This document shows, in pieces, positions 6,236 to 58,367 of a stretch of DNA of 64,000 nt (within the stretch, counting starts at the first letter, position 1; every line of letters starts with the position of its first letter). The notes beneath the pieces were generated by a model that saw only the letters and a program-made list of their open reading frames with translations, had not been told where the DNA came from and searched no databases. The position numbers and the translations under genes are program-made. The DNA comes from Actinomycetota bacterium (GTDB lineage: Bacteria > Actinomycetota > AC-67), in NCBI GenBank assembly GCA_046713235.1, contig JBKKBZ010000116.1, positions 2,742-66,741 of the forward strand, read 5' to 3'.

Positions 6236-7150
6236 TCATGGATCTTCTCGCGCCGTGCGGGTTGAGCGGATCACTCCGAAGTAGACGCCTACGAGCACGA
6301 GGATCGAGCCGACGACGAACGTGCCGGTGGTCTGCTCGTCCAGCAGCCAGGCCGCAAGCGCGATGCCAACCAGTGGCGCGAGCACGAACTCATAGGAGGC
6401 GGCGCTCGCCGACCATCTGCTGAGCACGAACAGATACAGCCCGAACACGCCCACCGTGCCGATGGTGACGAGGTAGGCCTGCGCTGCCCAGGTCGAACCT
6501 TCCTCGGGGATCTTGAAAGACTGGCCGAACAGCGGCATCAGTACGAAAAGCATCACGGTCGCCACGGCGAGGCCGATCGCATTCCTCGCCGCCGGATGCA
6601 CGGGAGGGAAGCCCTTCACAGCGATCGCGCCCTCAGCCGCACACGCCGCGGCCGCGAGGACTGCCAGCAATGATGCGACGGGCACACCTTCGTCGACGCC
6701 TCCGCGGAGGACGACCACCGTTCCCACCACGACGATCGCCGCGCCCGCAAGGCTGTCCCAGCGGAATCGCTCCTGGCCATGGGCAAGCGCAAAGATGAAC
6801 GTGAGCAATGGTCCCGTCGCCAGCAGCATGCCCGCCATCCCGGCGGGGACCTCTTGCAATCCCAAGTAGATGAATCCAAAGAAGGCGCCGAGCGAGAGTG
6901 CTCCGTACAACAGCGCGCCCACAAGTGCGCGCCCTCGCGGCATCGACGCACGAAGCACGCGCGCGACGATCGCGAAGATCACCGTGGCGATCAGGAAGCG
7001 CGACGCAGCCGCCCACAGAGGATCGATCCCCGGCTCGCGCAGTATGAGCTTGACGGCGACGACGTTACCGCCGATCCCGATCACCATGAGGAAGAACGCG
7101 CCAAGGACGGCCCGATCGGGCCGCTTGCCGGCCTCCTGCGCTTCCACCAC
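6236..7150 (-). CDS. EamA/DMT-family transporter
   Basis: ORF 6236..7150, 304 aa, about 10 TM segments in two repeated halves, typical of the EamA duplication. Confidence 0.8.
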   Translation of the reverse strand: MVEAQEAGKRPDRAVLGAFFLMVIGIGGNVVAVKLILREPGIDPLWAAASRFLIATVIFAIVARVLRASMPRGRALVGALLYGALSLGAFFGFIYLGLQEVPAGMAGMLLATGPLLTFIFALAHGQERFRWDSLAGAAIVVVGTVVVLRGGVDEGVPVASLLAVLAAAACAAEGAIAVKGFPPVHPAARNAIGLAVATVMLFVLMPLFGQSFKIPEEGSTWAAQAYLVTIGTVGVFGLYLFVLSRWSASAASYEFVLAPLVGIALAAWLLDEQTTGTFVVGSILVLVGVYFGVIRSTRTAREDP

Positions 7151-7252
7151 GTGCGACTTTATCGACAGCGCCCGATAGCATGCGTTGATGCCTCAGCGGT
7201 GTCGAAGACGCCATGCGGTCCGACCCGGCGTCAGGTTCGAACATTGTCAATC

Positions 7253-7329
<77 letters not shown>

Positions 7330-7350
7330 GCGGCCGGACAGGCTACCACT

Positions 7351-7713
7351 TCAGCCCTTTTCCGACACCGAGATCTCGATGCCGCCGACCACGTCGGCGA
7401 TGAGGTTGTAGAGAAACACGCCGCAGACGGTGATGATCGTCCAGACCACGGTCCCGAGGGCCCCGATGAGGAAGAACCACTTGAAGATCGCTCCGCCGGA
7501 GACCGTCACGGGATAATCCACGTCGGCGAACAACTGCTCGATGTCGGCGATGACCCCGAAGGCTTTCAGCATCGCGAAGATGATGGCCGAGCCGAGCAGA
7601 AAGACGAGGAGCAAGCAAAAGTAAAACAGGAGGGAGAACTTGAGGACCGACCACGGGTCGATCTTGCGGACGACGAGGCGAGCGCGGCGCCAGCCGCGAG
7701 GCGCAGCGGACAT
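7351..7713 (-). CDS. DUF3566 transmembrane protein (Rv0007 C-terminal-domain-like)
   Basis: ORF 7351..7713. The sequence RKIDPWSVLKFSLLFYFCLLLVFLLG...FLYNLIADVVGGIEISV is characteristic. It holds the conserved position next to the gyrA/tRNA-Ile region. Confidence 0.8.
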   Translation of the reverse strand: MSAAPRGWRRARLVVRKIDPWSVLKFSLLFYFCLLLVFLLGSAIIFAMLKAFGVIADIEQLFADVDYPVTVSGGAIFKWFFLIGALGTVVWTIITVCGVFLYNLIADVVGGIEISVSEKG

Positions 7714-7727
7714 CGTCTGGCCGGTCG

Positions 7728-9164
7728 CTATCCCTTGACGACCGCCAGAGGGCGCAGGCGCGCCACTCTCCTCGATAACTTCGCCCCCTCGCAGGTCTCC
7801 ACCACCGCGGACACATCCTTATACGCGGCCGGCGCCTCCTCCGCCAGCAGGCCCCATTGTGTCGCATTCACCAGCACACCGGCCGCAGCGAGGTCGGCCG
7901 CGAGCTGTCGGCCGCTGACCTGCTTCTTGGCTTGCGTGCGGCTCATCATTCGGCCGGCGCCGTGGCAGGTGGAGGAAAACGCCCGAGCGCCCTCGGCGAC
8001 ACCGGCCAGCACGTAAGAGGCCGTGCCCATCGAGCCCGGGATGAGCACCGGCTGTCCGGCCTCACGAAACGCATCTGCCAGCTCCGGGTGGCCGGGGCCG
8101 AACGCCCGCGTGGCGCCCTTGCGGTGAACGCAGAGAAGCCGCTCGCGCCCATCCACGTCGTGCCGTTCCAGCTTGGCAAGGTTATGCGAGACGTCGTACA
8201 CGAGCCGAAGGCCGAGATCCTCGGCACTCCGGCCGAAAACGGTCTCGAAGCACCGGCGAACCTCGTGTGCCAGAAGGTGCCTGTTCGCCCGGGCGAAATT
8301 CGCCGCCGCGGACATCGCCGACAGATACCGCTCACCTTCCGGCGTTCCCACCGGGGCACACGCGAGCTGCCGATCCGGGACGGTGATCTTGTATGCGGCC
8401 ATCGCCCGGTCGAACTTACGGACCTCGTCGGTGCAGACTTGGTGGCCGAGTCCTCGGGATCCGCAGTGCATCATCACCGTGATCGTCCCGGGCTCGAGGT
8501 CGAAGGCCGCAGCGGCGCGCTCGTCGAAGATTTCCTCGATCGCCTGGATCTCGAGGAAATGATTGCCGGCACCGAGCGATCCGAGCTGCGTCGCGCCGCG
8601 CTCGCGTGCCCGATCGCTTACCGCGTCGGGATCCGCTTCGAGGCGGCCCCCGTCCTCGCACCGCTCCACGTCCGAGGGCCAGCCGACACCGCGCTCGAGC
8701 AGCGCAACCACTCCGTCGGTGAGCACGTCCCGCATCTGGGCACCGTCGAGCTTCATGAGACCGTCGCGGCCCGTCCCCCGGGGTATGCGGCGCGCCAGCT
8801 CGTCGATCAGACGCTGCATCGCCGGCGCTGCTTCGGCGAGCAAGAGGTCGCTTCGCAACAGTCGCACACCGCAACAGATGTCGAATCCGACGCCCCCCGG
8901 TGTGACGACGCCGCCATTCTCGACGTCGGTCGCCGCAACCCCGCCGACGGGGAAGCCATAGCCCCAATGCACGTCGGGCATCGCGAACGAAGCGCGAACG
9001 ATGCCGGGAAGCATCGCCACGTTGGCCACCTGATCGAGGGCTCGATCCTCTTTCGCCTTTACCAATAACCCCTCGCTGGCAAAGACGTGGCCCGGCACGA
9101 CCATACCCGCCCGGGCGCCCACCGGGATCTGCCATTCGTACGGTCCGAGGCGGAGCAGGTCCAT
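7728..9164 (-). CDS. rtcB: RNA-splicing ligase RtcB (3'-phosphate/5'-hydroxyl ligase)
   Basis: ORF 7728..9203. Motifs seen: GGVGFDICCGVR, HCGSRGLGHQ, GSMGTASYVL, HGAGR. The preferred start ATG 9164 (MDLLRLGPYE) avoids overlap with the archease gene. Confidence 0.92.
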   Translation of the reverse strand: MDLLRLGPYEWQIPVGARAGMVVPGHVFASEGLLVKAKEDRALDQVANVAMLPGIVRASFAMPDVHWGYGFPVGGVAATDVENGGVVTPGGVGFDICCGVRLLRSDLLLAEAAPAMQRLIDELARRIPRGTGRDGLMKLDGAQMRDVLTDGVVALLERGVGWPSDVERCEDGGRLEADPDAVSDRARERGATQLGSLGAGNHFLEIQAIEEIFDERAAAAFDLEPGTITVMMHCGSRGLGHQVCTDEVRKFDRAMAAYKITVPDRQLACAPVGTPEGERYLSAMSAAANFARANRHLLAHEVRRCFETVFGRSAEDLGLRLVYDVSHNLAKLERHDVDGRERLLCVHRKGATRAFGPGHPELADAFREAGQPVLIPGSMGTASYVLAGVAEGARAFSSTCHGAGRMMSRTQAKKQVSGRQLAADLAAAGVLVNATQWGLLAEEAPAAYKDVSAVVETCEGAKLSRRVARLRPLAVVKG

Positions 9165-9172
9165 CGGGGCCT

Positions 9173-9577
9173 CTACACGTCGACGTAGACCCGAGCCATC
9201 CATTCGGACCTAGTCTTGGACACGGTCAAGCCGTGATAAGTGACCGCCTTGATCATGGGGCCGGCCGGCTCGGAGTCGATAACCACATAGACGTCCCCCT
9301 CCGCACGAGTCGGCGACACCTGCCGGAGGTCGGCGCCTACCACAAGCTCGCCTCGGGTCTCGAAGCGGTACAGGCACTCCTCCAGGAACTGGACGAGGGT
9401 GTCCTCAAGGTCGGACCCCTCGACCAGGATCGCCCGGGCGTCGTCGGAATCGTCGGGCTCGTCGTCGAGGATGATCGCCGCAAGGGCGCGAGCCGCGTCG
9501 GCGAACAGGACGGGAAGCTCGGGCGCACGCACCTCGATTCCCACGTCCGCCGTGTGGGGGATGATCTCGTACGGCAT
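9173..9577 (-). CDS. archease (RtcB activator/chaperone family)
   Basis: ORF 9173..9577. N-terminus MPYEIIPHTADVGIEV...LFADAARAL and C-terminus KAVTYHGL match the archease family pattern. Confidence 0.85.
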   Translation of the reverse strand: MPYEIIPHTADVGIEVRAPELPVLFADAARALAAIILDDEPDDSDDARAILVEGSDLEDTLVQFLEECLYRFETRGELVVGADLRQVSPTRAEGDVYVVIDSEPAGPMIKAVTYHGLTVSKTRSEWMARVYVDV

Positions 9578-9581
9578 CCTG

Positions 9582-12032
9582 CTACTCCGCCTCTACCTCC
9601 GCGATCACCGGGGCCATCGCCGAGATCTGCTGATCCTTGTCGAGGCGCATAACCCGGACCCCCTGAGTGTCCCGCCCCATCCGGGAGATGTCCTTGCAGG
9701 CCATTCGGATCACTACCCCGCTGGAAGAGATGAGGAAGACCTCGTGACCGGGCCGGACGACCATGGCGCCGCGGATCTGGCCGCGACGGGAGGTCAACCG
9801 CGCAGTCTTGACACCCTTACCTCCTCGCCGCTGGCGCGGATAGTGGGTCAGCATCGTGCGCTTGCCGAAGCCGGACTCGGTGACGATGAGTAGCTCCCCA
9901 TTCGGGTCCACGACGTCGAAGGCGACCAATTCGTCGTTGCCTCCAACCCGCATCCCGATGACCCCGGTTGCGGTGCGACCCATCGGCCGGACGTCGTTCT
10001 CGTCGAACGTGATCGAATAGCCGCCTCTCGAGACCATGATGAGCTCGTCCTCGCCCGTCGTCGCGCGAACCTGAACGACTTCGTCGTCTGCGCGCAGGTT
10101 GACGGCGATGATGCCGTCGCGGCGCGAAGAGTCGTACGCCGAGAACAGGGTCTTCTTGATCACGCCGCGTTTCGTCGCGATGACGAGATACTTACGCGTC
10201 GCGTAGTCGCGGGTATCGATCACCGCGGCGATCGACTCGTCCCCGGCCAGAGGAAGCAGGTTGCGCAGGCTGATCCCGCGTGCGGTGCGGTCCTTCTCAG
10301 GGATCTCGTGCGCCTTGATGCGGTAGACCTTGCCGCGATTCGAGAAGAACAGCACGTAGGAAAGGTTTGTCGTCGTCAGCATCTGGCCGACGATGTCTCC
10401 TTCCTTGGGCTTCGCGCCGCGTATCCCCTTGCCACCCCGTCCTTGGGTCCGGAAGACGTTCGACAGCACGCGTTTGATGTACCCGGACCGCGTGATGGTA
10501 ACGACGACGTCGTCGTCGGCGATCAAATCCTCGACGTCGATATCGCCCTCATCGCTGCCGATCTGGGTGCGGCGCTTGTCGGCGTGGCGGGACCGGATCT
10601 CGCCCAGCTCGTCCTTGATGATGCCGCGAATGCGCATCGGATCGGCGAGGATCGCTTTGTATTCGGCGATCTTCGCCGACAGCTCTGCGTGCTCCTCCTC
10701 GATCTTCTGGCGCTCGAGCGCCGCCAGCCGGCGCAACTGCATGTCCAGGATTGCATTCGCCTGGATCTCGCTCAGACTGAACCGTTCCATCAGGGCGGTC
10801 CGCGCCTGATCCGCGTTCGCCGAGGCGCGGATGAGCGCGATGACGGCATCGAGGTTCTGCAGCGCCACCAGCAGCCCTTCGAGGATGTGCGCACGTTCCT
10901 CGGCCTTGCGCAAGCGGAAGCGCGTCCTGCGCGTGACGACGTCGATCTGATGAGCGATGTACGGTGCCAGCACTTGAGGAAGCGACAGCGTCCGCGGGAC
11001 GCCGTCGACGAGCGCGAGGCAGTTCACGCCGAACGAGTCCTGCAGCTGCGTGTGCTTGTAGAGGTTGTTCAGCACGACTTGTGGAATGGAGTCCCGCTTC
11101 AGCTCGATGACGAGCCGCAGACCCTGCCGGTTCGACTCGTTTTTCAATGCCTTGGCCGTCGCAGGGATGCCGGTTATGACCTTCTTCTCGATCAACTCGG
11201 CGATCTTGGCAAGGACCCGATCGCCGGACACCGTGTACGGCAGCTCGGTGACGATGATGCGCTGCTTGCCCGACGCCGTCTCCTCGATCACGGCTTTGCC
11301 GCGAACCTTGACCGAGCCGCGGCCGGTGGTGAACGCATCCTTGATGCTTTCGCGCCCCATGATGATGCCGCCGGTCGGAAAGTCCGGGCCCTTGACGTAC
11401 TTCATCAGTCCGGCAACGGTGATCTCGGGATCGTCGATCATCGCGATCGTGGCGTCGATGACCTCTCCAAGATTGTGCGGCGGAATGTTCGTCGCCATAC
11501 CGACCGCGATCCCGCTGGATCCGTTCACGAGCAGATTGGGAAACCGCGCCGGCAGCGGCATCGGCTCGACCTCTTCGCCGTCGTAGTTGGGCAGGAAGTC
11601 GACGGTCTCTTCATCGATGTCGCGAAGCAGCTCCATCGCAAGCCAGGTAAGCCGGCATTCGCTGTACCGCATCGCCGCCGGCGGATCGCCGTCGACGGAT
11701 CCGAAGTTTCCATGCCCCTGGATCAGCGGTGCGCGCATCGAGAAGTCCTGCGCCATCCGAACCAGCGCATCGTAGATCGCTGTGTCGCCGTGGGGATGGT
11801 ACCGACCCATCACGTCACCGACCACGCGGGCCGACTTCTTAAATGGGCGGTCCGGCCGGATGCCCTGCTCGTTCATGCCGTAGAGAATCCGTCGGTGTAC
11901 CGGCTTCAAACCGTCGCGCACATCGGGCAGCGCGCGTCCGACGATGACCGACATCGCGTAGTCGAGGTAGGAACGCTTGACCTCCTCTTCGATATCGATC
12001 GGTTCGATGTTGGGCTCGAGCGGAAGTGTCAT
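9582..12032 (-). CDS. gyrA: DNA gyrase subunit A
   Basis: ORF 9582..12032, 816 aa. Contains [31 protein letters not shown] and [10 protein letters not shown], plus C-terminal beta-pinwheel repeats. Confidence 0.98.
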
Positions 12033-12036
12033 CGGC

Positions 12037-13953
12037 TCAGATGTCCACGAACGCGTCCTTCGCGTTCCGCTGGATGAACTCCCGGCGAGACTCCACGTCC
12101 TCGCCCATGAGCACGGTGAAGATCTGGTCGGCCACGGCGGCGTCGTCGAGCGTCACCTGGAGGAGCCGCCGTGTCTCCGGGTTCATCGTGGTATCCCACA
12201 GCTCTTCCGCGTTCATCTCGCCGAGACCCTTGAACCTCTGGATCGGAACCTTCTTGTTCGCCGGCGCCCCGGCGAGCACCTCGTCGCGCTGCCGGTCGCT
12301 GAAGGCGTAGCGCTTCTTTCCCTCGATCACGAGCCGGTAGAGCGGCGGCTGCGCGACGTAGACGTGTCCGGTTTCGACCAGCAAACGCATGTGCCGGAAG
12401 AAAAAGGTCAGCAGAAGCGTGCGGATGTGTGCGCCGTCGACATCGGCGTCGGTGAGGATCACGACCTTCCCGTAGCGCAGCTTCGACACGTCCGACTCCT
12501 CCCCGATGCCTGCCCCGATCGCGGAGATGAGTGCGAGGATCTCGTTGTTCTCCAGGACCTTGTGGAGACGGGCCTTCTCAACGTTGAGGATCTTTCCTCG
12601 GATGGGAAGGATCGCCTGAGTCTCCCGGTTTCGGGCCTGCTTGGCGCTCCCGCCCGCCGAGTCTCCCTCGACAATGAAGACCTCGCACGCATCGGGGTCG
12701 TTCGATGAGCAGTCGGCGAGCTTGCCGGGCAGACCCCCAGCATCGAACGCACTCTTCCGCGCGATGTCGCGCGCCTTCTTTGCGGCGAGCCGGGCGCGGG
12801 CGGCCTGCGTGGCCTTCGCGACCACGCGGCGTCCTTCGGTCGGATGCTCCTCGAACCACTCCGCCAGCCGCGCGTTCAGCGTCCGCTCGACGAACGCGCG
12901 GATCTCGGTGTTGCCGAGCTTGGTCTTGGTCTGTCCCTCGAATTGCGGCTCTCGAAGCTTTATCGACACGATCGCAACGAGGCCCTCACGAATGTCCTCG
13001 CCTTGAAGGTTCTCTTCCTTTTCCTTCAGCAGACCCTTGGCCCGGGCGTAGCGGTTCACGACGTTCGTGAGCGACTTCTTGAAGCCCTCCTCGTGCATTC
13101 CACCTTCGTGGGTGTTGATCGTGTTCGCGAAGGTGTAGATGGAGTCGTTGAAGCCGGCGTTCCACTGGAGCGCCATCTCGATCTCGCGCTCCTCCTCGGC
13201 GGCCTCGAAATAGATGATCTTGTTGAGGGTCTCGCGGCCGGCGCTCAGCGCCTTCACCATGTCTGCGATGCCGCCGGTGAAGCGATAGGTCTGCTCGTTC
13301 TTCGGGTGGGTTCGCTCGTCGGTGAGGGTGATCGACACACCCTTGGTCAGGTAGGCGAGCTCCTTGAGCCGTTGCTGAAGCACGTCGAACTTGAACTCGA
13401 GGTCCTCGAAGACCTGCGGATCGGGCCAGAAGTCGACCGTGGTCCCCGACTTCTGCGATGGTTTACCGCGCTCGAGCTTGGAGGTCGCCTTCCCTCTCGC
13501 GTAGCTTTGCTTCCAGGTGAAACCCTCGCGGTGGACCGTGACCTCGAGGCGCTCGGAGAGGGCGTTCACCACGGAGACACCCACCCCGTGGAGACCTCCG
13601 GAGACCGCATAACCCTTGCCGTCGAACTTTCCGCCGGCATGGAGCACCGTGAGCACAACCTCGAGCGCCGGACGCTTGTCCTTGCGGCCGGGGATCGGCT
13701 GGACGGGGATCCCTGCGCCGTTGTCGGTCACGCGGACTCCCCCGTCGGCCATGAGGACGGCGTCGATCTTGTCGCACCGGCCGGCCAGCGCTTCGTCGAT
13801 CGCGTTGTCGACAACCTCGTAGACCAGGTGATGGAGTCCCCGCGGACCGGTGGAGCCGATGTACATTCCGGGCCTGCGGCGAACCGCTTCGAGCCCCTCC
13901 AGAACCTGGATTTCGCTCGACGTGTAGCTCGTAACCGGCTTGGCCAAGCTCAA
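12037..13953 (-). CDS. gyrB: DNA gyrase subunit B
   Basis: ORF 12037..13953, 638 aa. Contains [39 protein letters not shown] (Toprim) and [12 protein letters not shown]-like motifs. Confidence 0.98.
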
Positions 13954-14130
13954 CTCCTCCAGGGCGTGCCGAAGCCCCGGGGAAGGGGCTCGGGGGGCCG
14001 GATCGGGCGACCGTTTCGAAGACCAATTCTAGCACGTCAGAGGCCTTTTTCGGCACCTCGGAGGCGCCGGTTTCGCCTCCTTCGGAGCATGTCCGACGAG
14101 CCGGACCTCACCTCCGCGGCCGGCTCCCCC

Positions 14131-14475
14131 TCATTCCTGTCTGGCCCGGCCTACGACGGCCCGCACCCGAGTCACCGATCCGGGCGGTAAGACGCCCGCG
14201 ACCCGCTCCAGCAAGGTTGCAGAAAGCAGCGTGAGCTCGGTGGCCCACGTGGGATTCTCGGCGCGAACGAAGAGCTCGCCGTCGACGAGCTTCACCGGTT
14301 CGCATCGGGCCGCGACGGTGGCCCCTACGATCTCCGCCCACCGCGCGGCAAGCTTGCCCAGAGCAAGCCGCTCCGACCAGCCGGGCCGATGACTGAGGTC
14401 CTCAATCAGCTCACCGAGACGCCGCGGGTCCTTGCGCCGCGGGTCCGTGTTGCCGTCATCACGCCGCATCGACAC
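14131..14475 (-). CDS. dciA: DUF721 protein (DciA-type helicase-operator family, Rv0004-like)
   Basis: ORF 14131..14475, sited between recF and gyrB as in mycobacteria. The sequence LGKLAARWAEIVG...LFVRAENPTWATELTLL is typical of DUF721. Its start overlaps the recF 3' end by 17 nt. Confidence 0.75.
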   Translation of the reverse strand: MSMRRDDGNTDPRRKDPRRLGELIEDLSHRPGWSERLALGKLAARWAEIVGATVAARCEPVKLVDGELFVRAENPTWATELTLLSATLLERVAGVLPPGSVTRVRAVVGRARQE

Positions 14476-15562
14476 GTCCCTCGCCGACGTGGAAGACCTT
14501 GGCTTCGAGCGAATCGGGAACCGCCCCCGGATCGGCCGCCGTGATGATGGCTTGCGCTCCGTCGGGCAGGGCGGCGGCCACTCGCTCGCGCCGCGCCGGG
14601 TCGAGCGGCTCGAGGGCGTCGTCGAGAAGCAGGACCGGCTCGTCCCCGCCCGTCGCTTCCCTCACCGAACTCCACGCCGCGAGCGCGAGCGCGAGCGTCA
14701 CCACCCACGCCTCTCCCTGCGACGCATGGGTCCGTGCCGGCAGGCCGTCGATCCCGAAAGCGACGTCGTCGCGATGAGGCCCCACCAGCGTCATCGCGCG
14801 GATGATCTCGTCCGATCGGCGCTCCTCAATGCGCGCGAGCATCGCCGCTGCCCAAGCTGCTGCGTCTGTTCCCACCCCGGGATGAGGAATGTTCGGACGA
14901 TAGGCGATCTCGAGCAGCCCGCGTCCCGCCACCGCCGCCCAGGCCGCGGCGGCGTGCGGCGCCAGCGCGCGGATGGCGGCTTCGCGCCTCGCCGAGATCT
15001 CTCCGCCGGAGGCCGAGAGCTGCGCGTCCCAGACCTCGATCCCGTCGGGCCTGCGCCCGGCCGACTCCCGTAGCAACGCGTTGCGCTGTCTAAGCGCGCG
15101 TTCGTAATCGCGGAGCACCCCGGCCAGCCGCGGCGTCACTTGCACGAGGATCTCATCGAGGAAGCGCCGGCGCTCGAGCGGATCTCCCCGAACGACCTCG
15201 ACCCGCTCCGGCGCAAAGAGACATGCACGAAGCACGCCGAGAACCTCGCGCTTGCGCCGAAGCGGCTCCCCGTCTAGCCGAACCCGGGACGCCCCCTGAG
15301 AACGGATCTCTACCTCGACCACCTGCTGCCTCACGTCGCGCTGCGTGTGAGCCCGAACGACGGCGCTCACACGGGACCGCTGGATGAGCGCCGGATCGGG
15401 GGCCCGGTGCGAGCCGAGAGTCGCGGCGTACCACGCTGCCTCAACGATTGAGGTTTTACCCGACGCGTTCGGTCCGACCAGTGCCACGCGTCCGGACGGG
15501 ATCGCGAGATCGAGTCCTTCCCAGCACCGGAACCCGTTCAGCTCGAGACGAGCGAGCCGCAC
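14459..15562 (-). CDS. recF: DNA replication/repair protein RecF
   Basis: ORF 14459..15562. Walker A GPNASGKTS, an ABC-signature-like SQGE region, and LLLDD (Walker B). Conserved dnaN-recF position. Confidence 0.93.
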   Translation of the reverse strand: MRLARLELNGFRCWEGLDLAIPSGRVALVGPNASGKTSIVEAAWYAATLGSHRAPDPALIQRSRVSAVVRAHTQRDVRQQVVEVEIRSQGASRVRLDGEPLRRKREVLGVLRACLFAPERVEVVRGDPLERRRFLDEILVQVTPRLAGVLRDYERALRQRNALLRESAGRRPDGIEVWDAQLSASGGEISARREAAIRALAPHAAAAWAAVAGRGLLEIAYRPNIPHPGVGTDAAAWAAAMLARIEERRSDEIIRAMTLVGPHRDDVAFGIDGLPARTHASQGEAWVVTLALALAAWSSVREATGGDEPVLLLDDALEPLDPARRERVAAALPDGAQAIITAADPGAVPDSLEAKVFHVGEGRVDAA

Positions 15563-16848: not shown

Positions 16849-18225
16849 TCAGGCCGATTCCACCTGCTGCGCGGTTCTTCTTCGGATTCTCGCCGTCAAC
16901 TCTTGGACCTGTGAATAGATTTGGCGGTGCTCGCCCATCAGCTTTCGGATCTTGCCATCGGCGTGCAAAACCGTGGTGTGGTCTCGTCCGCCGAAGATCT
17001 CGCCTAGCTTCGGAAGGGACAGCGGGGTCAGCTCCCGGCACAGGTACATGGCCACCTGCCGGGCCAGTACGATCGGGCGCTGGCGCGACGGACCCAGGAG
17101 ATCGCCGCGCGAGATGCCGAAGAACGAAACGCATTCCGCGATAACGACGTCGGGCCGGATCTCGCTGGCGCCCTCGGGAGCCAGCAGCGGGTTGAGAGCC
17201 TCTCGTGCCAGCTCCAGCGTCAGCGGCAGTCTCGACAGGGAGGACCACGATACGACCCGGATGAGCCGGCCCTCGAGCTCACGGATGTTGTTTTGCACGC
17301 GAGTCCCGATGAACTCGAGGACGTCATCGGGAACCTCGAAGCCTTCCGCCCGGGCCTTATTGTGGAGAATCGCCACCCGGGTTTCGAGATCAGGGGGCTG
17401 AACATCGGTGATAAGACCCCATTCGAAGCGGGTGCGCAGGCGATCCTCCAGCGAGGCGATGGCGCTCGGTGGCCGGTCGGAAGAGATGACTATCTGCCGG
17501 CCGTCGTTGTAGAGGGCGTTGAAGGTATGAAAGAACTCCTCTTGGGTGCGCTCACCGGTTGCCAGGAACTGGATATCGTCTACGAGCAGCACGTCGGTCT
17601 CGCGGTAACGCCGGCGGAACGCCGGCATCTTCTCCTCCCGCACGCCGCTGATGAACTCGTTCATGAATTGCTCGCTCGACACGTACCGCACGACCGCGGT
17701 CGGGTAGAGCGAACGGACGCAGTGTCCAATCGCGTGAAGCAAGTGGGTCTTTCCTAGACCGGCTCCCCCATAGATGAAGAGCGGGTTGTACGACCGGGCC
17801 GGTTGCTCGGCGACCGCCAGTGCCGCCGCGTGGGCGAACCGGTTCGAGGGACCGATCACGAACGTGTCGAAGCTGTATTTCGGAATGAGCTGCGAAGCTT
17901 CGGCGGCCGCGCGCAGTGGTGCCGGTACCGGGTCGGCCGGAGCGTCGAGGTCGAACACCTCCGGGGGCGCCGGCCGTGCGTCGACCGTGACCGATAGAGA
18001 AAGCGGCCTCTCCGCGGCAGCCTGCAGAGCCTCCGTGACTAGGCCTGCGTATCTTGTCTCCAGCCACTCCTTGGCGAACGCACTCGGGACTCCGAGGACG
18101 ATTTCGTCCCCGGAGAGGCTGAGCGGCCGGCTTCCTTCGATCCAGGTCTTGGCGCCGGGTGAGGGCAAGCGGTCACGCAGCGTCGCAAGGGTCCTCTGCC
18201 AAATTACGTCAAGTTCGTCGCCCAC
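16849..18225 (-). CDS. dnaA: chromosomal replication initiator DnaA
   Basis: ORF 16849..18399. Contains [15 protein letters not shown] (Walker A), LLVDDIQFL and a C-terminal HTH (DHTTVLHA). The preferred start GTG 18225 follows GGGAGG, though the 3-nt spacer to the GTG is short. The longer ORF would translate across a DnaA box (TTATCCACG 18248-18256). Confidence 0.93.
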
Positions 18226-18501
18226 GGGCCTCCCTGGTCCACAATGGTTATCCACGGTTGTGCAAAACCCTGGGGAAGGATTCACGCGTAGACAAACAGC
18301 AACTTCGCGAGGCCGAGGGAAGGAAGGGCTTGCCCAGTCGCCGACGCTCATCGGCGGACGAGCGGGCGCGAAGATACCATCGGTTTCCACAGACCTCAAG
18401 AGCGGGAAAGCGCCTCACTTTTGCCCCTCTCTAACGGTGACGAGAGGCGCCGATCGGCACGGTTGCGCCCCCACAGGCCGACCCGTAGACTGCGGACTTC
18501 G
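18226..18501. promoter_or_regulatory. dnaA/rpmH divergent control region with DnaA-box-like sites
   Basis: TTATCCACG at 18248-18256 and GTTTCCACA at 18383-18391. This is a 276-bp divergent intergenic region. Confidence 0.5.
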
Positions 18502-26734: not shown

Positions 26735-26950
26735 CTACCGAGCGTAGATGGCGGGCCGATAACGGGGGCGCGGAATCGGTCGCCCTTCCTCACGGGCTGC
26801 CGCGAGCCACGCTTCCTTCGCGCGGTTGACTTCCGCGACCGCCTCCTCGGGAGTCTTGCCGAAGGCGGAGCACGCCTCAAGGTCGGGGATGTCGGCGATG
26901 TAGCCGCCGTCCTCCTCGCTGTAGAAAACGTTGATGTGGTAGTCGCTCAC
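26735..26950 (-). CDS. hicB: type II antitoxin HicB
   Basis: ORF 26735..26950. Contains YHINVFYSEEDGGYIADIPDLEACSAFGKTPEEAVAEVNRAKEAWL, the HicB/UPF0150 fold signature. It overlaps hicA by 4 nt. Confidence 0.85.
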   Translation of the reverse strand: MSDYHINVFYSEEDGGYIADIPDLEACSAFGKTPEEAVAEVNRAKEAWLAAAREEGRPIPRPRYRPAIYAR

Positions 26951-27279
26951 CGGTCCTCCCTGAGCTTCAAAGCATACCGTTCAACGAGCTTCATGAGCTG
27001 ACGGACCTGGTAGGGCTTCGCCTGACCGCTCACCTCTTGGAGGTTGACGAGCTCCGAGAGGTCCGGATGGCCGTAGATGTGATGACTCCCTGAGACCCGC
27101 TTTCGCTCGAACCCAAAGGCCTCCACGAGCCGGGCAAGATCATCGAACGAGACGTTCTTCACCGATCCTCGGGCTACGCGGCGAAGGAGCTTGCGAGGAT
27201 CCACGAGAACCACCCTATCGGGGACCGCCGTCACAATACCGAGGTCGCCGTTCGTGTGGACCGCGACCGCTGAGTCCAT
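26947..27279 (-). CDS. hicA: type II toxin HicA (mRNA interferase)
   Basis: ORF 26947..27279. Contains LARLVEAFGFERKRVSGSHHIYGHP...KPYQVRQLMKLVE. A shorter start at GTG 27204, preceded by AGGGTGG, would give the usual size of about 85 aa. Confidence 0.82.
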   Translation of the reverse strand: MDSAVAVHTNGDLGIVTAVPDRVVLVDPRKLLRRVARGSVKNVSFDDLARLVEAFGFERKRVSGSHHIYGHPDLSELVNLQEVSGQAKPYQVRQLMKLVERYALKLREDR

Positions 27280-49970: not shown

Positions 49971-50333
49971 ATGGCAGCAGCGATCGACTACCGGATGGCG
50001 AAGCGAGCCATCCTGCGCCAGCTCCGCTACGGGCTTCTGTCCAGGCTAGATGTGTGCGACGCGCACCCCGAGCTTCTGCGCGCCGCCCGCCACATCGGGG
50101 TCGAGACCTCGGACGTGTGCCCGGTTTGTGAGAGGGAGTCTCTCCGCCTCGTCGTCTACACCTACGGCAAGGCACTGAAGCGAGGCAGCGGCCGCGTGCG
50201 CCGTCTCCAAGATCTTCACGAGTTGCGCCGCGAGGTCGACGAGTTCATCTGCTACGTGGTCGAGGTGTGCACCCGGTGCCAGTGGAACCATCTGGTGCGG
50301 TCCTACCTCACCGGACGCCGGCACGCCGTCTAG
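49971..50333 (+). CDS. small Cys4 protein, DUF5318/Rv0049-like
   Basis: ATG 49971 within ORF 49311..50333 gives MAAAIDYRMAKRAILRQL...CPVCERE...CTRCQWNHL. It holds the conserved position between padR and ponA. Confidence 0.75.
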   Translation: MAAAIDYRMAKRAILRQLRYGLLSRLDVCDAHPELLRAARHIGVETSDVCPVCERESLRLVVYTYGKALKRGSGRVRRLQDLHELRREVDEFICYVVEVCTRCQWNHLVRSYLTGRRHAV

Positions 50334-50419
50334 TACCGCTTTGTCCGGGCTTACCGCCCCCTCCTCCGCTTGGATGTCGGTTGTCCTGGGTAGCCTCGTC
50401 GCAGGAGGGAGTTTCAATC

Positions 50420-52516
50420 GTGAAGACACGACCACGGGCTCGGGCCTCACGCACCCCAATGAAGGGCCGCCGCGGACGCTCGCGCTTCGGTCTCGACGCG
50501 GCTCGGGTGAAGCGGTGGCTGATCTTCGCCGTCCCAGGGTCGCTCGTGCTTGTGTTGTTGCTGCTCGGCCTGGCGTACGCACTTGCCCGCGTGCCGGAGA
50601 CGTCCGACTTCGCGACGAGCCAATCGACGATCATCACCGACCGCTACAACCAGCCTTTCGCGCGGTTTCACGCTGAAGTCGATCGCTCGGACGTTCCGTT
50701 TGAGGAGATGCCGAAGTACCTGCGGGACGCGGTCATCGTTGTGGAAGACCGAACGTTCTACCGGCATGGCGGGGTCTCGGTCTCGTCCGTAATCCGAGCC
50801 GCATTCACGAACCTGGTTAACAGGGACGTGGTGCAAGGGGGGAGCACGATCACGCAGCAATACGTTAAGAACGCCTATGTCGGCCGGGAACGCACGTACT
50901 GGCGCAAGATCAAAGAGGTCATCGTTGCCATGAAGCTGGAGCGCTCGGCGTCGAAAGACGAGATCTTCGAGCAGTATCTGAACACTGTGTATTTCGGCGG
51001 GGGAGCATACGGTGTCGAGGCCGCCGCCAGAACCCATTTCGGCCGACCGGCAAAGGCGTTGTCGCTGTCGCAAGCCGCATTTCTGGCCGGAGCGATTCAC
51101 GCGCCACAGCGATACGCCGAGGATCCGGAACGCGCCCGGGAAAGACGCAACGCCGTGCTCGACACCATGGTCGACCTCGCCAAGATCTCGTCGAAGGATG
51201 CCGAGGCGGCGAAGGGGGAGACCCTGAGCTTCGTCCGGCGCCCACCCAACTTTGACACCTCGGTAGGGATCTATTTCGTCGAGGACGTGCGCAAGCAACT
51301 CATCGACGAGTTCGGGGAGAACAGGGTGTTTCGCGGAGGTCTTCGGGTGAGGACGACGCTCGATTTCAAGATGCAGCTGGCCGCCGAGGAGGCGGTGCGC
51401 AAGACACTCGATCGCCCCGACGACCCCGAGGCGGCCCTGGTCGCGGTCGAGCCGCAAACGGGGGCAGTGCGTGCGCTGGTCGGAGGTCGCGACTTCGCGC
51501 GCCAAAAGATGAACCTCGCGACTCAGGGCCGCGGCAGGCAACCGGGAAGTGCGTTCAAGCCGTTCATCCTCGCGGCGGCGCTCGATGAGGGGACGTCGAT
51601 TAAATCGACTTTCCGGGCGCCGTTTTCCATCGTGCTGAAAACCGGGTTCGAGCCGTGGGACGTGTCGAACTACGACGAGCGCGACTACGGAACCCTCGAT
51701 CTTCTCGACGCCACCGCTTTCAGCGTTAACACCGTCTACGCGCAGCTCATTCTCGAGGTCGGGCCACGCGCAGCTGCGCAGGCTGCCCAGCGCGCCGGGA
51801 TCACCAGCCCGATGTCGGCAGTGCCCTCACTTGCCCTGGGGACGAAAGAGGTGAAGCCGATCGAGCTCGCCGGCGCGTACGCGACGTTCGCCAACCGCGG
51901 CCTGCATCTTGCGCCGCACCTGATCGAGCGCGTGGTCGCCCCCGACGGAGAGGTCCTCTTCGAGGCTGAGATCGAGCCGGTGCGGGCTTTCGAAGAGAGG
52001 GTTGCGAACACCGTCAACTACGCGCTGCGCAACGTGATCGAAAGGGGCACGGGTCGCAGTGCCGCGTTCGGCCGGCCGGCAGCCGGAAAGACGGGTACGA
52101 CCGAGTTCCACGTCGACGCCTGGTTCGCGGGGTACACGCCCGAGCTTGCCGCCGCGGTGTGGATGGGGTACCCGCAGGGTGGGAAACGTATGGAGAACGT
52201 GCGCGGGGCCGCCGTGGTGGGAGGGTCGTTCCCCGCGCAGATCTGGCGCGCGTTCATGTCGGCGGTGCACAACGGAAAGCCGATCACCGATTTTGGCAAG
52301 CCGGATCTCGGCGGGGCGGTGGCATCATCGACGCCGTCGGTGGCGCCGTCACCGAGCCCGAGTGCGACCACTATTCCTCCCTCGTCGTTCTCGCCGGCAC
52401 CCTCGCTCCCGCCGAAGAAGACGAAGCCGCCGTCGCCCGGACCCTCCCCCACGTCCTCGCAGAGTTCCTCGCCGACGCCGACGCCGACGCCGGCGCCGGC
52501 ACCCGGTCCCACCTAG
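50420..52516 (+). CDS. ponA: class A penicillin-binding protein (transglycosylase/transpeptidase)
   Basis: ORF 50267..52516. The preferred start GTG 50420 follows GGAGGGAG. GT51 motifs: VVVEDRTFYRHGG and GGSTITQQYVKN. TPase motifs: SAFKP, SVN and KTGTT. The C-terminus is a Pro/Ser-rich tail. Confidence 0.93.
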   Translation: MKTRPRARASRTPMKGRRGRSRFGLDAARVKRWLIFAVPGSLVLVLLLLGLAYALARVPETSDFATSQSTIITDRYNQPFARFHAEVDRSDVPFEEMPKYLRDAVIVVEDRTFYRHGGVSVSSVIRAAFTNLVNRDVVQGGSTITQQYVKNAYVGRERTYWRKIKEVIVAMKLERSASKDEIFEQYLNTVYFGGGAYGVEAAARTHFGRPAKALSLSQAAFLAGAIHAPQRYAEDPERARERRNAVLDTMVDLAKISSKDAEAAKGETLSFVRRPPNFDTSVGIYFVEDVRKQLIDEFGENRVFRGGLRVRTTLDFKMQLAAEEAVRKTLDRPDDPEAALVAVEPQTGAVRALVGGRDFARQKMNLATQGRGRQPGSAFKPFILAAALDEGTSIKSTFRAPFSIVLKTGFEPWDVSNYDERDYGTLDLLDATAFSVNTVYAQLILEVGPRAAAQAAQRAGITSPMSAVPSLALGTKEVKPIELAGAYATFANRGLHLAPHLIERVVAPDGEVLFEAEIEPVRAFEERVANTVNYALRNVIERGTGRSAAFGRPAAGKTGTTEFHVDAWFAGYTPELAAAVWMGYPQGGKRMENVRGAAVVGGSFPAQIWRAFMSAVHNGKPITDFGKPDLGGAVASSTPSVAPSPSPSATTIPPSSFSPAPSLPPKKTKPPSPGPSPTSSQSSSPTPTPTPAPAPGPT

Positions 52517-57392: not shown

Positions 57393-58367
57393 TCAGTCCG
57401 GACCAGCGATGTTCCTGGCGCGCCCGGAGGATCTCATCGCGCGGGCGATGGCTCGCAACGCAGCGTCGGGTCCTTCGACGATGTCCGACCACGTCACGTG
57501 GATGACCAGCCAGCCCAGGGAGGTGAGCTCGTTCCGGCGCGCCAGGTCGCGGGTCCACCGAAGCCGTCCGCCGTGCCATCGAAATCCTTCGGCCTCGATC
57601 GCGATGCGCCGCTCCGGGTAGGCGAAGTCGACGACGGCGACGAGGCGGCCTCCATCCCTAATCCGATGCTGACGAATCGGATCGGGTAAGCCGACGCTTT
57701 GAAGCGCGCGCAGAACCCTGGTTTCTAACACGCTCTGGGGGACGGGGAGGCCGTCGGCGCGGGTTTCGACGAGCGAGCGAAGCAACGCCGCGCCGGCGCG
57801 CCCATTGCGCGGGGCCTGGCCCAGTTGCCACCTCATCCGCTTCAGGGATACCAGCCCCCTTCGTAGCGCATCGTCGAGAGCCTCTTCCACCGTGCGGGCA
57901 TCGGCAGCAGCCGCGACGTCGAGCAGCGTTCGTGTCGGGGTCGTCACCGGTATCGCGTCCCGAGTCGTGACGTCACCGGGCGGCAGAGAGAGTGGCCGGT
58001 GGACGGTGCCGGGACGTTTTCGGTCGCGGCCGCGCGGCACGATCAGCTCGATCGGCCCCGCCGGGAAACCAGGGAACGCCCACAGGGCGGCGGCGGCACG
58101 GTGGGACGCGACGGCTCCCGGTCCCCAGGCAAGACACGCCGCGATTAGCGCCTGGCGCCACGTCTCCGAGGATCCGGCCAGCCGGTACACGCTCTTGTGC
58201 ACCCGCTCCCAGCTACCGGTGGCAATGCGACGATGCATCATGCCGTCGCTCGCCCCCAGCTGCCGGGCCTGCATCCGGGAGAAAACCCCGTGTTGACCGG
58301 CCGCCAGCTTTGCTATCCGCCGGTCGGCGGATTCTCGTACGATCCTACGCTCGCCCGCGAACGCCAC
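57393..58367 (-). CDS. AbiEi_4-like N-terminal domain fused to a DUF559 (Vsr/restriction-endonuclease-like) domain
   Basis: ORF 57393..58367. N-terminus reads LAAGQHGVFSRMQARQLG...HRRIATGSWERVHKSVYRL. The C-terminus reads VVDFAYPERRIAIEAEGFRWHG...RDLARRNELTSLGWLVIHVTW. Confidence 0.78.
   Translation of the reverse strand: MAFAGERRIVRESADRRIAKLAAGQHGVFSRMQARQLGASDGMMHRRIATGSWERVHKSVYRLAGSSETWRQALIAACLAWGPGAVASHRAAAALWAFPGFPAGPIELIVPRGRDRKRPGTVHRPLSLPPGDVTTRDAIPVTTPTRTLLDVAAAADARTVEEALDDALRRGLVSLKRMRWQLGQAPRNGRAGAALLRSLVETRADGLPVPQSVLETRVLRALQSVGLPDPIRQHRIRDGGRLVAVVDFAYPERRIAIEAEGFRWHGGRLRWTRDLARRNELTSLGWLVIHVTWSDIVEGPDAALRAIARAMRSSGRARNIAGPD

Follow-up and report, generated by a model that had tools for sequence, protein, structure and literature searches.

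An archease-RtcB gene pair placed between gyrA and cofA in an uncultured actinobacterial lineage

In one uncultured member of the Actinomycetota (lineage AC-67) the genes for an archease and an RtcB-family RNA ligase lie inside the gyrase locus. How did the pair come to be there, is it transcribed with gyrase, and does its position say anything about what it does? The DNA analyzed is a contig stretch of 64,000 nucleotides (the window), in which direct sequence reading, Pfam and ARAGORN give the following order on the minus strand:

12037-13953, minus strand: gyrB, 638 aa, TTG start (Pfam HATPase_c, DNA_gyraseB, Toprim, DNA_gyraseB_C)
9582-12032, minus strand: gyrA, 816 aa (Pfam DNA_topoisoIV, 8e-162, and six DNA_gyraseA_C repeats)
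9173-9577, minus strand: archease, 134 aa (PF01951, 6e-29)
7728-9164, minus strand: rtcB, 478 aa (PF01139, 1e-168)
7351-7713, minus strand: DUF3566, a CofA-like small membrane protein, 120 aa (PF12089, 9e-23)
7253-7329, minus strand: tRNA-Ile(GAT) (ARAGORN; Rfam RF00005, 73.8 bits)

The spacers are 4 nt (gyrB-gyrA), 4 nt (gyrA-archease), 8 nt (archease-rtcB) and 14 nt (rtcB-DUF3566), the same values as in an earlier reading made from the letters of the DNA (the sequence-only reading), and a further 21 nt separate DUF3566 from the tRNA. Since dnaA, dnaN, recF and DciA lie upstream of gyrB, the locus is assigned to the oriC region, and gyrB follows dnaN-recF-DciA in relatives too.

The DUF3566 product, which scores 81 bits against PF12089 (cutoff 22), belongs to the family now known as CofA, characterized as acting with the class A PBP1a as its cofactor. 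In Actinobacteria at large, cofA typically comes immediately after gyrase and is itself followed by tRNA genes (Sher et al., 2020, eLife, PMC7205459). The window agrees with this layout in its flanking genes and their order beside dnaA-dnaN-recF-DciA, but differs in that gyrA is not adjacent to DUF3566: archease and rtcB are interposed as 1.85 kb between them. The sequence-only reading had taken the pair for an insertion into a conserved gyrBA-DUF3566-tRNA unit, and this is borne out both by the published layout and by three relatives (L170-L172) that have exactly that layout, gyrA being followed directly by DUF3566. CofA is also short in the window, at 120 aa versus 153-207 aa in these empty-site relatives. 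The tRNA-Ile follows DUF3566 in relatives as well, often with a tRNA-Ala. The counterpart of the locus in M. tuberculosis is Rv0005-Rv0007-ileT. A class A PBP gene is also present in the window, at 50267-52516.

The archease and RtcB proteins

While the longest rtcB open reading frame opens at 9203, homologs and the alignment to Pyrococcus horikoshii (Pho) RtcB fit the ATG at 9164, giving 478 aa. The protein matches PF01139 over model positions 1-426 of 426 (562 bits, cutoff 27) and aligns end to end with the RtcBs of P. horikoshii (3e-160, residues 3-478) and Thermus thermophilus (TTHA1785, 2e-154). Its Asp95, Cys98, Asn201, His202, His233, His327 and His401 correspond to Pho D95, C98, N202, H203, H234, H329 and H404, of which D95, C98, H203, H234 and H329 are Mn2+ ligands and His404 is the residue that is guanylylated. 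All seven positions are invariant in the RtcBs compared (87/87). The window RtcB is an orthodox member of the 3′-phosphate/5′-hydroxyl RNA ligase family by sequence, with that activity predicted.

The archease matches PF01951 over the full model (101.5 bits, cutoff 25; positions 1-136 of 136) and P. horikoshii archease (4n2p) at 1e-8, although its score of 72 against the NCBIfam equivalog model falls below the cutoff of 126, which marks it as divergent within the family. Activation of RtcB in P. horikoshii depends on His9, Asp12, Lys117, Asp141 and the C-terminal Ile142 (PMC3973293), and these correspond to His8, Asp11, Lys110, Asp133 and the C-terminal Val134 of the window protein, the activation residues being kept in 58-60 of the 61 archeases collected. 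It is, from these residues, an orthodox member of the RtcB activator family, with activation as its predicted role. In the proposed scheme RtcB would join 2′,3′-cyclic-phosphate or 3′-phosphate ends to 5′-OH RNA ends using GTP and Mn2+ through a His-GMP intermediate, and archease would turn it into a multiple-turnover enzyme. Both genes would be translated through their own Shine-Dalgarno sites, namely GGAG at −11 to −8 for archease, located inside the end of gyrA, and GAGG at −10 to −7 for rtcB.

Such a pair is well precedented. Archease-RtcB operons in bacteria and the archease dependence of T. thermophilus RtcB are documented, and the so-called tRNA splicing operon is found in P. horikoshii, T. 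thermophilus, Pelobacter, Synechococcus and Syntrophus (Desai et al., 2014, 2015; PMC3973293, PMC4604427). The window resembles these in that archease and rtcB are adjacent on the same strand, RtcB is of the roughly 480-aa type, and the catalytic residues and the archease metal-site and activation residues are all conserved. It is unlike them in that the pair lies within gyrB-gyrA-cofA at oriC rather than alone or beside tRNA-modification genes. To describe the pair as archaeal/eukaryal in style is misleading. Of 85 RtcB loci, mostly bacterial and drawn from many phyla, 59 have an archease gene close by, operons of the two genes have been on record for bacteria since 2014 (PMC3973293), and the window RtcB groups with actinobacterial RtcBs.

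The other well-known arrangement is the sigma-54, RtcR-controlled rtcBA-rtcR operon of Escherichia coli, with which the window shares an RtcB-family ligase. The window RtcB scores 193 bits against the E. coli-type model NF007153 (cutoff 407), and archease is absent from E. coli. Pfam searches of 46 of the window open reading frames gave no rtcA, rtcR or Ro domain, nor were these among the immediate neighbors of the pair, and only the tRNA reached the Rfam gathering score in the window, so that no Y RNA was detected, in agreement with the sequence-only reading.

Synteny and ancestry of the pair

Of 13 related contigs from uncultured Actinomycetota, 8 have the order gyrB-gyrA-archease-rtcB-DUF3566(-tRNA-Ile), all of the relatives being MAG or metagenome contigs. 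The eight are the window, L001, L003, L006, L016 (which ends within rtcB, so that DUF3566 would lie beyond the contig), L009, L010 and L086, and their gyrA-archease spacers are 4-21 nt. The identity of gyrA to that of the window runs from 85% down to 53%, and since the order is kept over this range the placement is old and not the result of a recent transfer. The archease-rtcB junction is −4, −1, +8 or +38 nt in the clade, and of the 11 relatives in which the two genes are adjacent, 8 have them overlapping (−1 or −4). DUF3566 follows rtcB in every one of the 12 clade contigs that extend as far as this junction.

The link to gyrase is less constant and is broken in 5 of the 13 members: gyrBA is inverted in L088, an opposite-strand CAP-domain gene (L008) or an opposite-strand histidine kinase and response regulator (L089) lie between gyrA and archease, and giant adhesin genes, a 7 kb insertion, separate archease from rtcB in L005 and L021. 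In addition, the empty-site relatives are nested inside the insertion-bearing lineage in a gyrA tree, and in L087 archease-rtcB occur at another locus. The inverted gyrBA, the interrupted junctions and the empty-site subclade indicate that linkage to gyrase is dispensable. The sequence-only reading had named as its refuting case an arrangement both universal and already documented in the clade; the order is in fact common in the lineage but not universal, and a literature search found no published account of a gyrase-archease-rtcB arrangement.

Where did the pair come from? In neighbor-joining trees, which carry no support values, the gyrA/DUF3566-linked RtcBs form one group that is sister to the RtcBs of Acidimicrobiia and Streptomyces, and among the best 80 loci in a scan of GTDB species representatives the top match is 67% identical. 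The GC3 values of archease (0.86) and rtcB (0.80) are within the range of the window genes. A recent horizontal transfer from archaea is rejected in view of this host-like codon-position GC and of the actinobacterial affiliation of the nearest RtcBs outside the clade. An origin of the pair as a mobile element has no support either, since the flanking spacers of 4 and 14 nt are too tight to hold terminal repeats and neither neighbor encodes an integrase or a transposase. The pair was probably inherited vertically within the Actinomycetota and would have been relocated into the gyrA-cofA junction early in one uncultured lineage. A known pair is thus found in a new genomic setting. The placement is old and undescribed, but looks more like an accident of position than like a novel system, and the finding is otherwise a synteny variant of two described systems, the operon of archease with RtcB and the locus of gyrBA with cofA.

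Transcription of the locus

A scan for sigma-70 consensus sites over 7000-14600 gave none, which is uninformative for an actinobacterium of 66% GC, and a search for TANNNT −10-like hexamers combined with cross-species conservation was used in its place. Two candidates emerged:

14026-14034, minus strand: candidate promoter of the operon, an extended −10 (TGcTAGAAT) in the 177-nt DciA-gyrB gap, 73 nt before the gyrB start
7340-7345, minus strand: candidate separate tRNA promoter, −10-like TAGCCT, 11-16 nt before the 5′ end of tRNA-Ile

TAGAAT (14026-14031) is the sole TANNNT in the DciA-gyrB gap. The block containing the extended motif, CTCTGACGTGCTAGAAT, is identical in L001 and has one or two mismatches in L003 and in the empty-site relative L170, while the spacer is poorly conserved outside it, and we infer that TGcTAGAAT is a candidate promoter for the operon. 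At about the equivalent place before the tRNA, L001, L003, L008, L010 and L005 have TAGCCT, TAGACT, TACAAT or TACTAT, and TAGCCT may similarly serve as a separate promoter for tRNA-Ile. The 200 nt preceding each of archease, rtcB and DUF3566 contain no TANNNT hexamer, against a background of about 0.2 per 200 nt. Promoters of actinobacteria can, however, be so degenerate that a motif scan misses them, and an internal promoter inside gyrA may yet be present. No terminator-like hairpin follows gyrA, and the sole terminator-like matches are weak and inside open reading frames.

The genes from gyrB to cofA thus have the features of a single operon, with one strand, short spacers and no internal promoter or terminator motifs. 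Co-transcription of archease and rtcB with gyrase is plausible in the window genome, being favored by the lack of internal TANNNT hexamers and the conserved TGcTAGAAT upstream of gyrB. The reading preferred here, to which a probability of about 0.7 is given, is that a canonical archease-activated RtcB pair, inherited vertically and relocated early, most likely shares with gyrB, gyrA and cofA a transcript driven by a promoter ahead of gyrB, that it most likely serves for RNA end-joining or repair of a generic kind, both the ligase activity and the physiological substrate being inferred, and that its position beside gyrase is a tolerated historical accident and not functional coupling.

In the alternative that fares best, archease, rtcB and cofA would form their own transcription unit with a promoter in the 3′ coding end of gyrA and would be expressed independently of gyrase. 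A promoter of its own is required for the archease-rtcB-DUF3566 block in L088, where the inverted gyrBA leaves a 254-nt divergent gap, and in L008 and L089, and the block stays whole when parted from gyrA. For the window genome this is nevertheless unlikely, as the gyrA-archease junction has no TANNNT, sigma-70-like site or terminator-like hairpin, and a 4-nt spacer with a ribosome-binding site in the end of gyrA is typical of an operon-internal gene.

If the pair is co-transcribed with gyrase, the RNA ligase would be expressed from a very strong, steady, origin-proximal and supercoiling-sensitive operon, as opposed to the stress-induced, RtcR-gated system of E. coli, and the lineage would offer a natural test case for an always-on bacterial archease-RtcB. 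With its directly linked, inverted, interrupted, empty and relocated members, the clade is also a natural experiment on gene position versus RtcB expression.

Significance of the position beside gyrase

Could the link to gyrase be functional? The pair might benefit from a supercoiling-responsive gyrBA promoter and origin dosage, RtcB might seal or cap DNA ends, or archease might modulate gyrase. Short gyrA-archease spacers have persisted in 8 of 13 members over deep divergence, and similar placements occur outside the clade. The order gyrA-rtcB-serS is found in L075, L090 and L091, from an AT-rich uncultured bacterial lineage, and in L029, an Elusimicrobia-labelled MAG, gyrA lies within 5 kb upstream of archease-rtcB-serS with four open reading frames between. 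Like the window, these have rtcB directly or closely downstream of gyrA in a recF-DciA-gyrB-gyrA cluster, but they belong to other phyla, their RtcBs are only 50-55% identical, serS and not cofA/tRNA-Ile is downstream, and L075 lacks archease; their placement is probably independent in origin. A rough estimate is that chance predicts about 0.5 gyrA-near cases among about 140 non-clade loci, although the figure is a crude one and the cases outside the clade could be related by descent. One further locus, L058 (labelled Actinomycetota), was discounted as a case of gyrase linkage because five unrelated genes, including that of an OprB porin, lie in the 6.5 kb between a gyrA fragment and archease-rtcB, and because the fragment may be parC.

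Biochemically, RtcB joins 5′-OH DNA and guanylylates DNA 3′-phosphate in vitro (PMC8051266, PMC4381079), and a paper cited in PMC3973293, Anantharaman and Aravind (2004), deals with the SHS2 module common to GyrI, a gyrase inhibitor, and the archease superfamily. Against a functional link stand the five members in which it is broken, the nested subclade that has lost the pair from the site while keeping gyrBA-cofA, and the fact that most surveyed RtcB loci have no gyrase nearby. The DNA-end version meets a further objection in that type IIA topoisomerases leave 5′-phosphotyrosyl and 3′-OH ends, which are not RtcB substrates. A functional link is therefore improbable, as is the broader proposal that placement of rtcB, with or without archease, downstream of gyrA has been selected and has arisen at least two times, once in this Actinomycetota lineage and again in the gyrA-rtcB-serS lineage and the Elusimicrobia-labelled MAG, coupling end-joining to a supercoiling-responsive, origin-proximal gyrase promoter. 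Were it so, the repair of nucleic-acid breaks would rise together with gyrase on DNA relaxation or replication restart, and direct action on DNA 3′-phosphate ends or modulation of gyrase by archease would also be conceivable. Its recurrence outside the clade is a hint that the gyrase cluster near the origin is perhaps a preferred site for the placement.

The sequence-only reading had also argued from linkage to gyrase to constitutive expression and a housekeeping role, possibly in repair after cleavage by a HicA toxin. The inference of a housekeeping role is weakened by the same broken links and empty sites, and further because gyrase operons are regulated by supercoiling and are not simply constitutive. 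The toxin concerned is encoded elsewhere in the window:

26947-27279: HicA
26735-26950: HicB-like gene

E. coli RtcB re-ligates toxin-cleaved rRNA, and HicA and a HicB-like gene are indeed present, but a dedicated role of the pair in countering resident RNase toxins of this kind is very improbable, given that hicAB lies about 17.5 kb away in an unrelated stretch with nothing tying it to the pair, and that a toxin gene is beside the pair in none of the 13 clade loci.

To return to the tolerated accident preferred here, one observation that counts against it concerns the downstream side of the pair: accident alone does not predict that the rtcB-DUF3566 junction should be retained without exception, and operon compaction may explain it.

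Gene order and the archease-rtcB pair

The archease-rtcB pair of the window is a two-gene module that is already known, here in a genomic context that is new and specific to one lineage, between gyrA and the gene for DUF3566 (CofA). The window covers the chromosomal origin region, where rnpA and yidC run divergently from dnaA; its gene order comes from an ORF listing, Pfam and tRNA searches, and the minus-strand sequence read directly.

Gene order around gyrase in the window
16849-18399, minus: dnaA
15571-16662, minus: dnaN
14459-15562, minus: recF
14131-14475, minus: DciA
12037-13953, minus: gyrB
9582-12032, minus: gyrA
9173-9577, minus: archease (PF01951, 6e-29)
7728-9164, minus: rtcB (PF01139, 562 bits)
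7351-7713, minus: DUF3566 (cofA)
7253-7329, minus: tRNA-Ile(GAT)

Direct strand reading from gyrB to tRNA-Ile gave spacers of 4, 4, 8, 14 and 21 nt, the first four being the values reported in the sequence-only reading of this DNA. The start of rtcB was placed at the ATG at 9164, in agreement with the length of every homologue (478-481 aa) and with how the protein aligns to Pyrococcus horikoshii RtcB; the mechanical ORF starts at 9203.

Judged by sequence, the two inserted proteins are orthodox members of their families. RtcB aligns over its full length with the enzymes of P. horikoshii (3e-160) and Thermus thermophilus (TTHA1785, 2e-154), and its D95, C98, N201, H202, H233, H327 and H401 match, in the Pyrococcus protein, the ligands of Mn2+, Asn202 and the histidine that becomes guanylylated, seven catalytic positions that are invariant in 87 of 87 aligned RtcBs. 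Archease retains His8, Asp11, Lys110, Asp133 and a hydrophobic C-terminal residue, the counterparts of P. horikoshii residues whose substitution abolishes RtcB activation. Codon-position GC of the two genes is host-like. No rtcA, rtcR or Ro domain was found among the 46 window ORFs scanned, and tRNA was the sole match in an Rfam search.

The catalytic cysteine of the window RtcB belongs to a vicinal pair, Cys97-Cys98 (codon of residue 97 at ~8874-8876, minus strand). Cys97 occurs only in the window subgroup (the window and the related contigs L001, L003, L006 and L016) and in one Acidimicrobiia sequence, the residue elsewhere being Ser, Asn, Gly or Ala. The oxidation sensitivity of the RtcB active-site cysteine is known, and the vicinal pair is possibly linked to it. 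Five metagenome loci (L118, L120, L125, L126 and L127) show RtcB homology in two pieces, an N-terminal ~90 aa and a C-terminal ~380 aa in the same orientation and 1.3-1.5 kb apart, consistent with intein-containing RtcBs, for which NCBIfam includes models.

A 2014 paper described archease-rtcB operons 'in diverse bacteria and archaea' (PMC3973293), and an archease-dependent bacterial RtcB, that of T. thermophilus, followed in 2015 (PMC4604427). Archease was also present within the fetched flanks at 59 of 85 RtcB loci sampled, which were mostly bacterial and from many phyla, and therefore the 'archaeal/eukaryal style' ascribed to the pair is not a distinguishing trait. The embedding in the gyrase cluster, in turn, appears undescribed; our literature search found no paper naming RtcB, archease and gyrase together. 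The function of DUF3566 is no longer unknown, and its gene lies 'invariably very close to oriC' (PMC4255298). The window also encodes, at 50267-52516 (plus strand), a class A penicillin-binding protein (Transgly and Transpeptidase), the type of enzyme that CofA/DUF3566 partners in Corynebacterium.

Conservation and disruption of the gyrase linkage

One deep, uncultured actinobacterial lineage (the clade) shares this arrangement as a conserved feature; the clade was assembled from a protein search, contig look-ups and a scan of GTDB species representatives and analyzed with locally built HMMs. Its 13 distinct contigs, the relatives all being MAG or metagenome contigs of coarse taxonomy, carry RtcBs 63-76% identical to that of the window, which form one group, sister to RtcBs of Acidimicrobiia and Streptomyces/Kitasatospora, in a neighbor-joining (NJ) tree (all trees lack support values). 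Direct gyrB-gyrA-archease-rtcB-DUF3566 order occurs in eight contigs (the window, L001, L003, L006, L016, L009, L010 and L086; L016 stops within rtcB, with DUF3566 outside view), with gyrA-archease spacers of 4-21 nt, a TGATG or ATGA overlap joining archease to rtcB in most, and DUF3566 followed by tRNA-Ile and often also tRNA-Ala. The arrangement is old, since the gyrA of these contigs ranges from 85% down to 53% identity to that of the window.

Within the clade, breaks in the link to gyrase recur, in contrast to the constant rtcB-DUF3566 junction, which is present in 12 of the 12 clade contigs that reach it, at -4 to +14 nt where the DUF3566 start can be assigned (the gap is ~190 nt in L010, and the uncertain start in L001 and L003 is no more than 54 nt distant). 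The whole gyrB-gyrA segment of L088 (2845-7325) is inverted between DciA and archease; gyrB and archease are transcribed in opposite directions from the 254 nt between them, a naturally uncoupled case that could serve as a control in studies of expression. Opposite-strand genes separate gyrA from archease in L008 (a CAP-domain gene) and L089 (a histidine kinase and response regulator). Adhesin genes of ~7 kb separate archease from rtcB in the Microflora Danica long-read MAGs L005 (188-578 and 2156-7937) and L021 (163-6942), the insertions being of MBG_2/RTX/F5_F8 type and up to 2259 aa; the L005 archease, split over two frames, is either a pseudogene or a homopolymer sequencing error. The pair of L087 lies at an unrelated locus.

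Three matches looked up from a DUF3566 search (L170, L171 and L172) have an empty site, recF-DciA-gyrB-gyrA-DUF3566, with gyrA 71-72% identical to that of the window. They nest within the insertion-bearing lineage in the gyrA NJ tree, sister to the window subgroup, with deeper branches for L010, for L089 and for the L088/L008/L009/L086 group. This pattern is read most economically as a single insertion at an early stage, the pair later being lost from the site or moved elsewhere in one subclade. The proposed insertion into a conserved operon is supported. The gyrA of L171 (2750-6469; 1239 aa product) is interrupted by an intein that carries a LAGLIDADG homing endonuclease.

Gyrase proximity outside the clade

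An uncultured, AT-rich lineage has the order gyrA-rtcB-serS (L075, the identical L090, and L091, which is 85% identical), L121 has rtcB-serS at a contig end, and L029, an Elusimicrobia-labelled MAG, has gyrA, four unannotated ORFs and then archease-rtcB-serS. No gyrase lies within 7 kb of rtcB at the other ~140 non-clade RtcB loci, save a discounted gyrA-like fragment 6.5 kb upstream of archease-rtcB in L058, an Actinomycetota-labelled locus. These few cases exceed the ~0.5 expected by chance, a crude estimate, but they may share ancestry and many of the contigs are short.

Selected functional coupling of the pair to gyrase, which this excess would favor, is improbable: the clade tolerates loss of the linkage, and gyrase leaves 5'-phosphotyrosyl and 3'-OH ends, neither of which is an RtcB substrate. 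In vitro, RtcB can act on 5'-OH and 3'-phosphate ends of DNA (PMC8051266, PMC4381079), and archease belongs to a fold class (SHS2) that also includes the gyrase inhibitor GyrI, as stated by a reference that PMC3973293 cites. The gyrA-rtcB-serS organism (L075/L090, L091) is unclassified, with 43-45% GC, and its gyrB (1899-4433 in L075/L090; 844 aa) has a ~200 aa insertion between the Toprim and C-terminal regions.

Transcription of the cluster

Promoters were called from motifs and conservation only; a generic sigma-70 scan was empty and uninformative here. A TANNNT scan gave no -10-like hexamer in the 200 nt that precede archease, rtcB or DUF3566, against a background of ~0.2 per 200 nt. Between DciA and gyrB (177 nt) there is a single such hexamer, TAGAAT at 14026-14031, with TGc in front of it. 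It lies in the block CTCTGACGTGCTAGAAT, which L001 shares without change and from which L003 and L170, an empty-site relative, differ at one or two positions; the remainder of the spacer is poorly conserved. Shine-Dalgarno-like sequences precede archease (GGAG) and rtcB (GAGG). Together these features favor a single predicted gyrB-gyrA-archease-rtcB-cofA transcript and agree with the probable co-transcription with gyrase first proposed. The tRNA-Ile probably has its own promoter, because a -10-like TAGCCT (7340-7345, minus strand), right after the cofA stop and 11-16 nt before the tRNA 5' end, has counterparts (TAGCCT, TAGACT, TACAAT, TACTAT) within 10-16 nt of the tRNA in L001, L003, L008, L010 and L005, which suggests a dedicated promoter with a very short leader.

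The further proposals of a constitutive housekeeping role and a connection to hicA were not supported. On the minus strand, the gene for the HicA toxin (PF07927, 26947-27279) shares 4 nt with that for a HicB/UPF0150-like antitoxin (26735-26950), and the true HicA start is probably internal to the listed 110 aa ORF, since the domain spans residues 46-97. A candidate defense or toxin-antitoxin-related gene at 57393-58367 (minus strand) encodes a fusion of an N-terminus resembling an AbiEi antitoxin with a C-terminus resembling an MTES_1575/DUF559 endonuclease.
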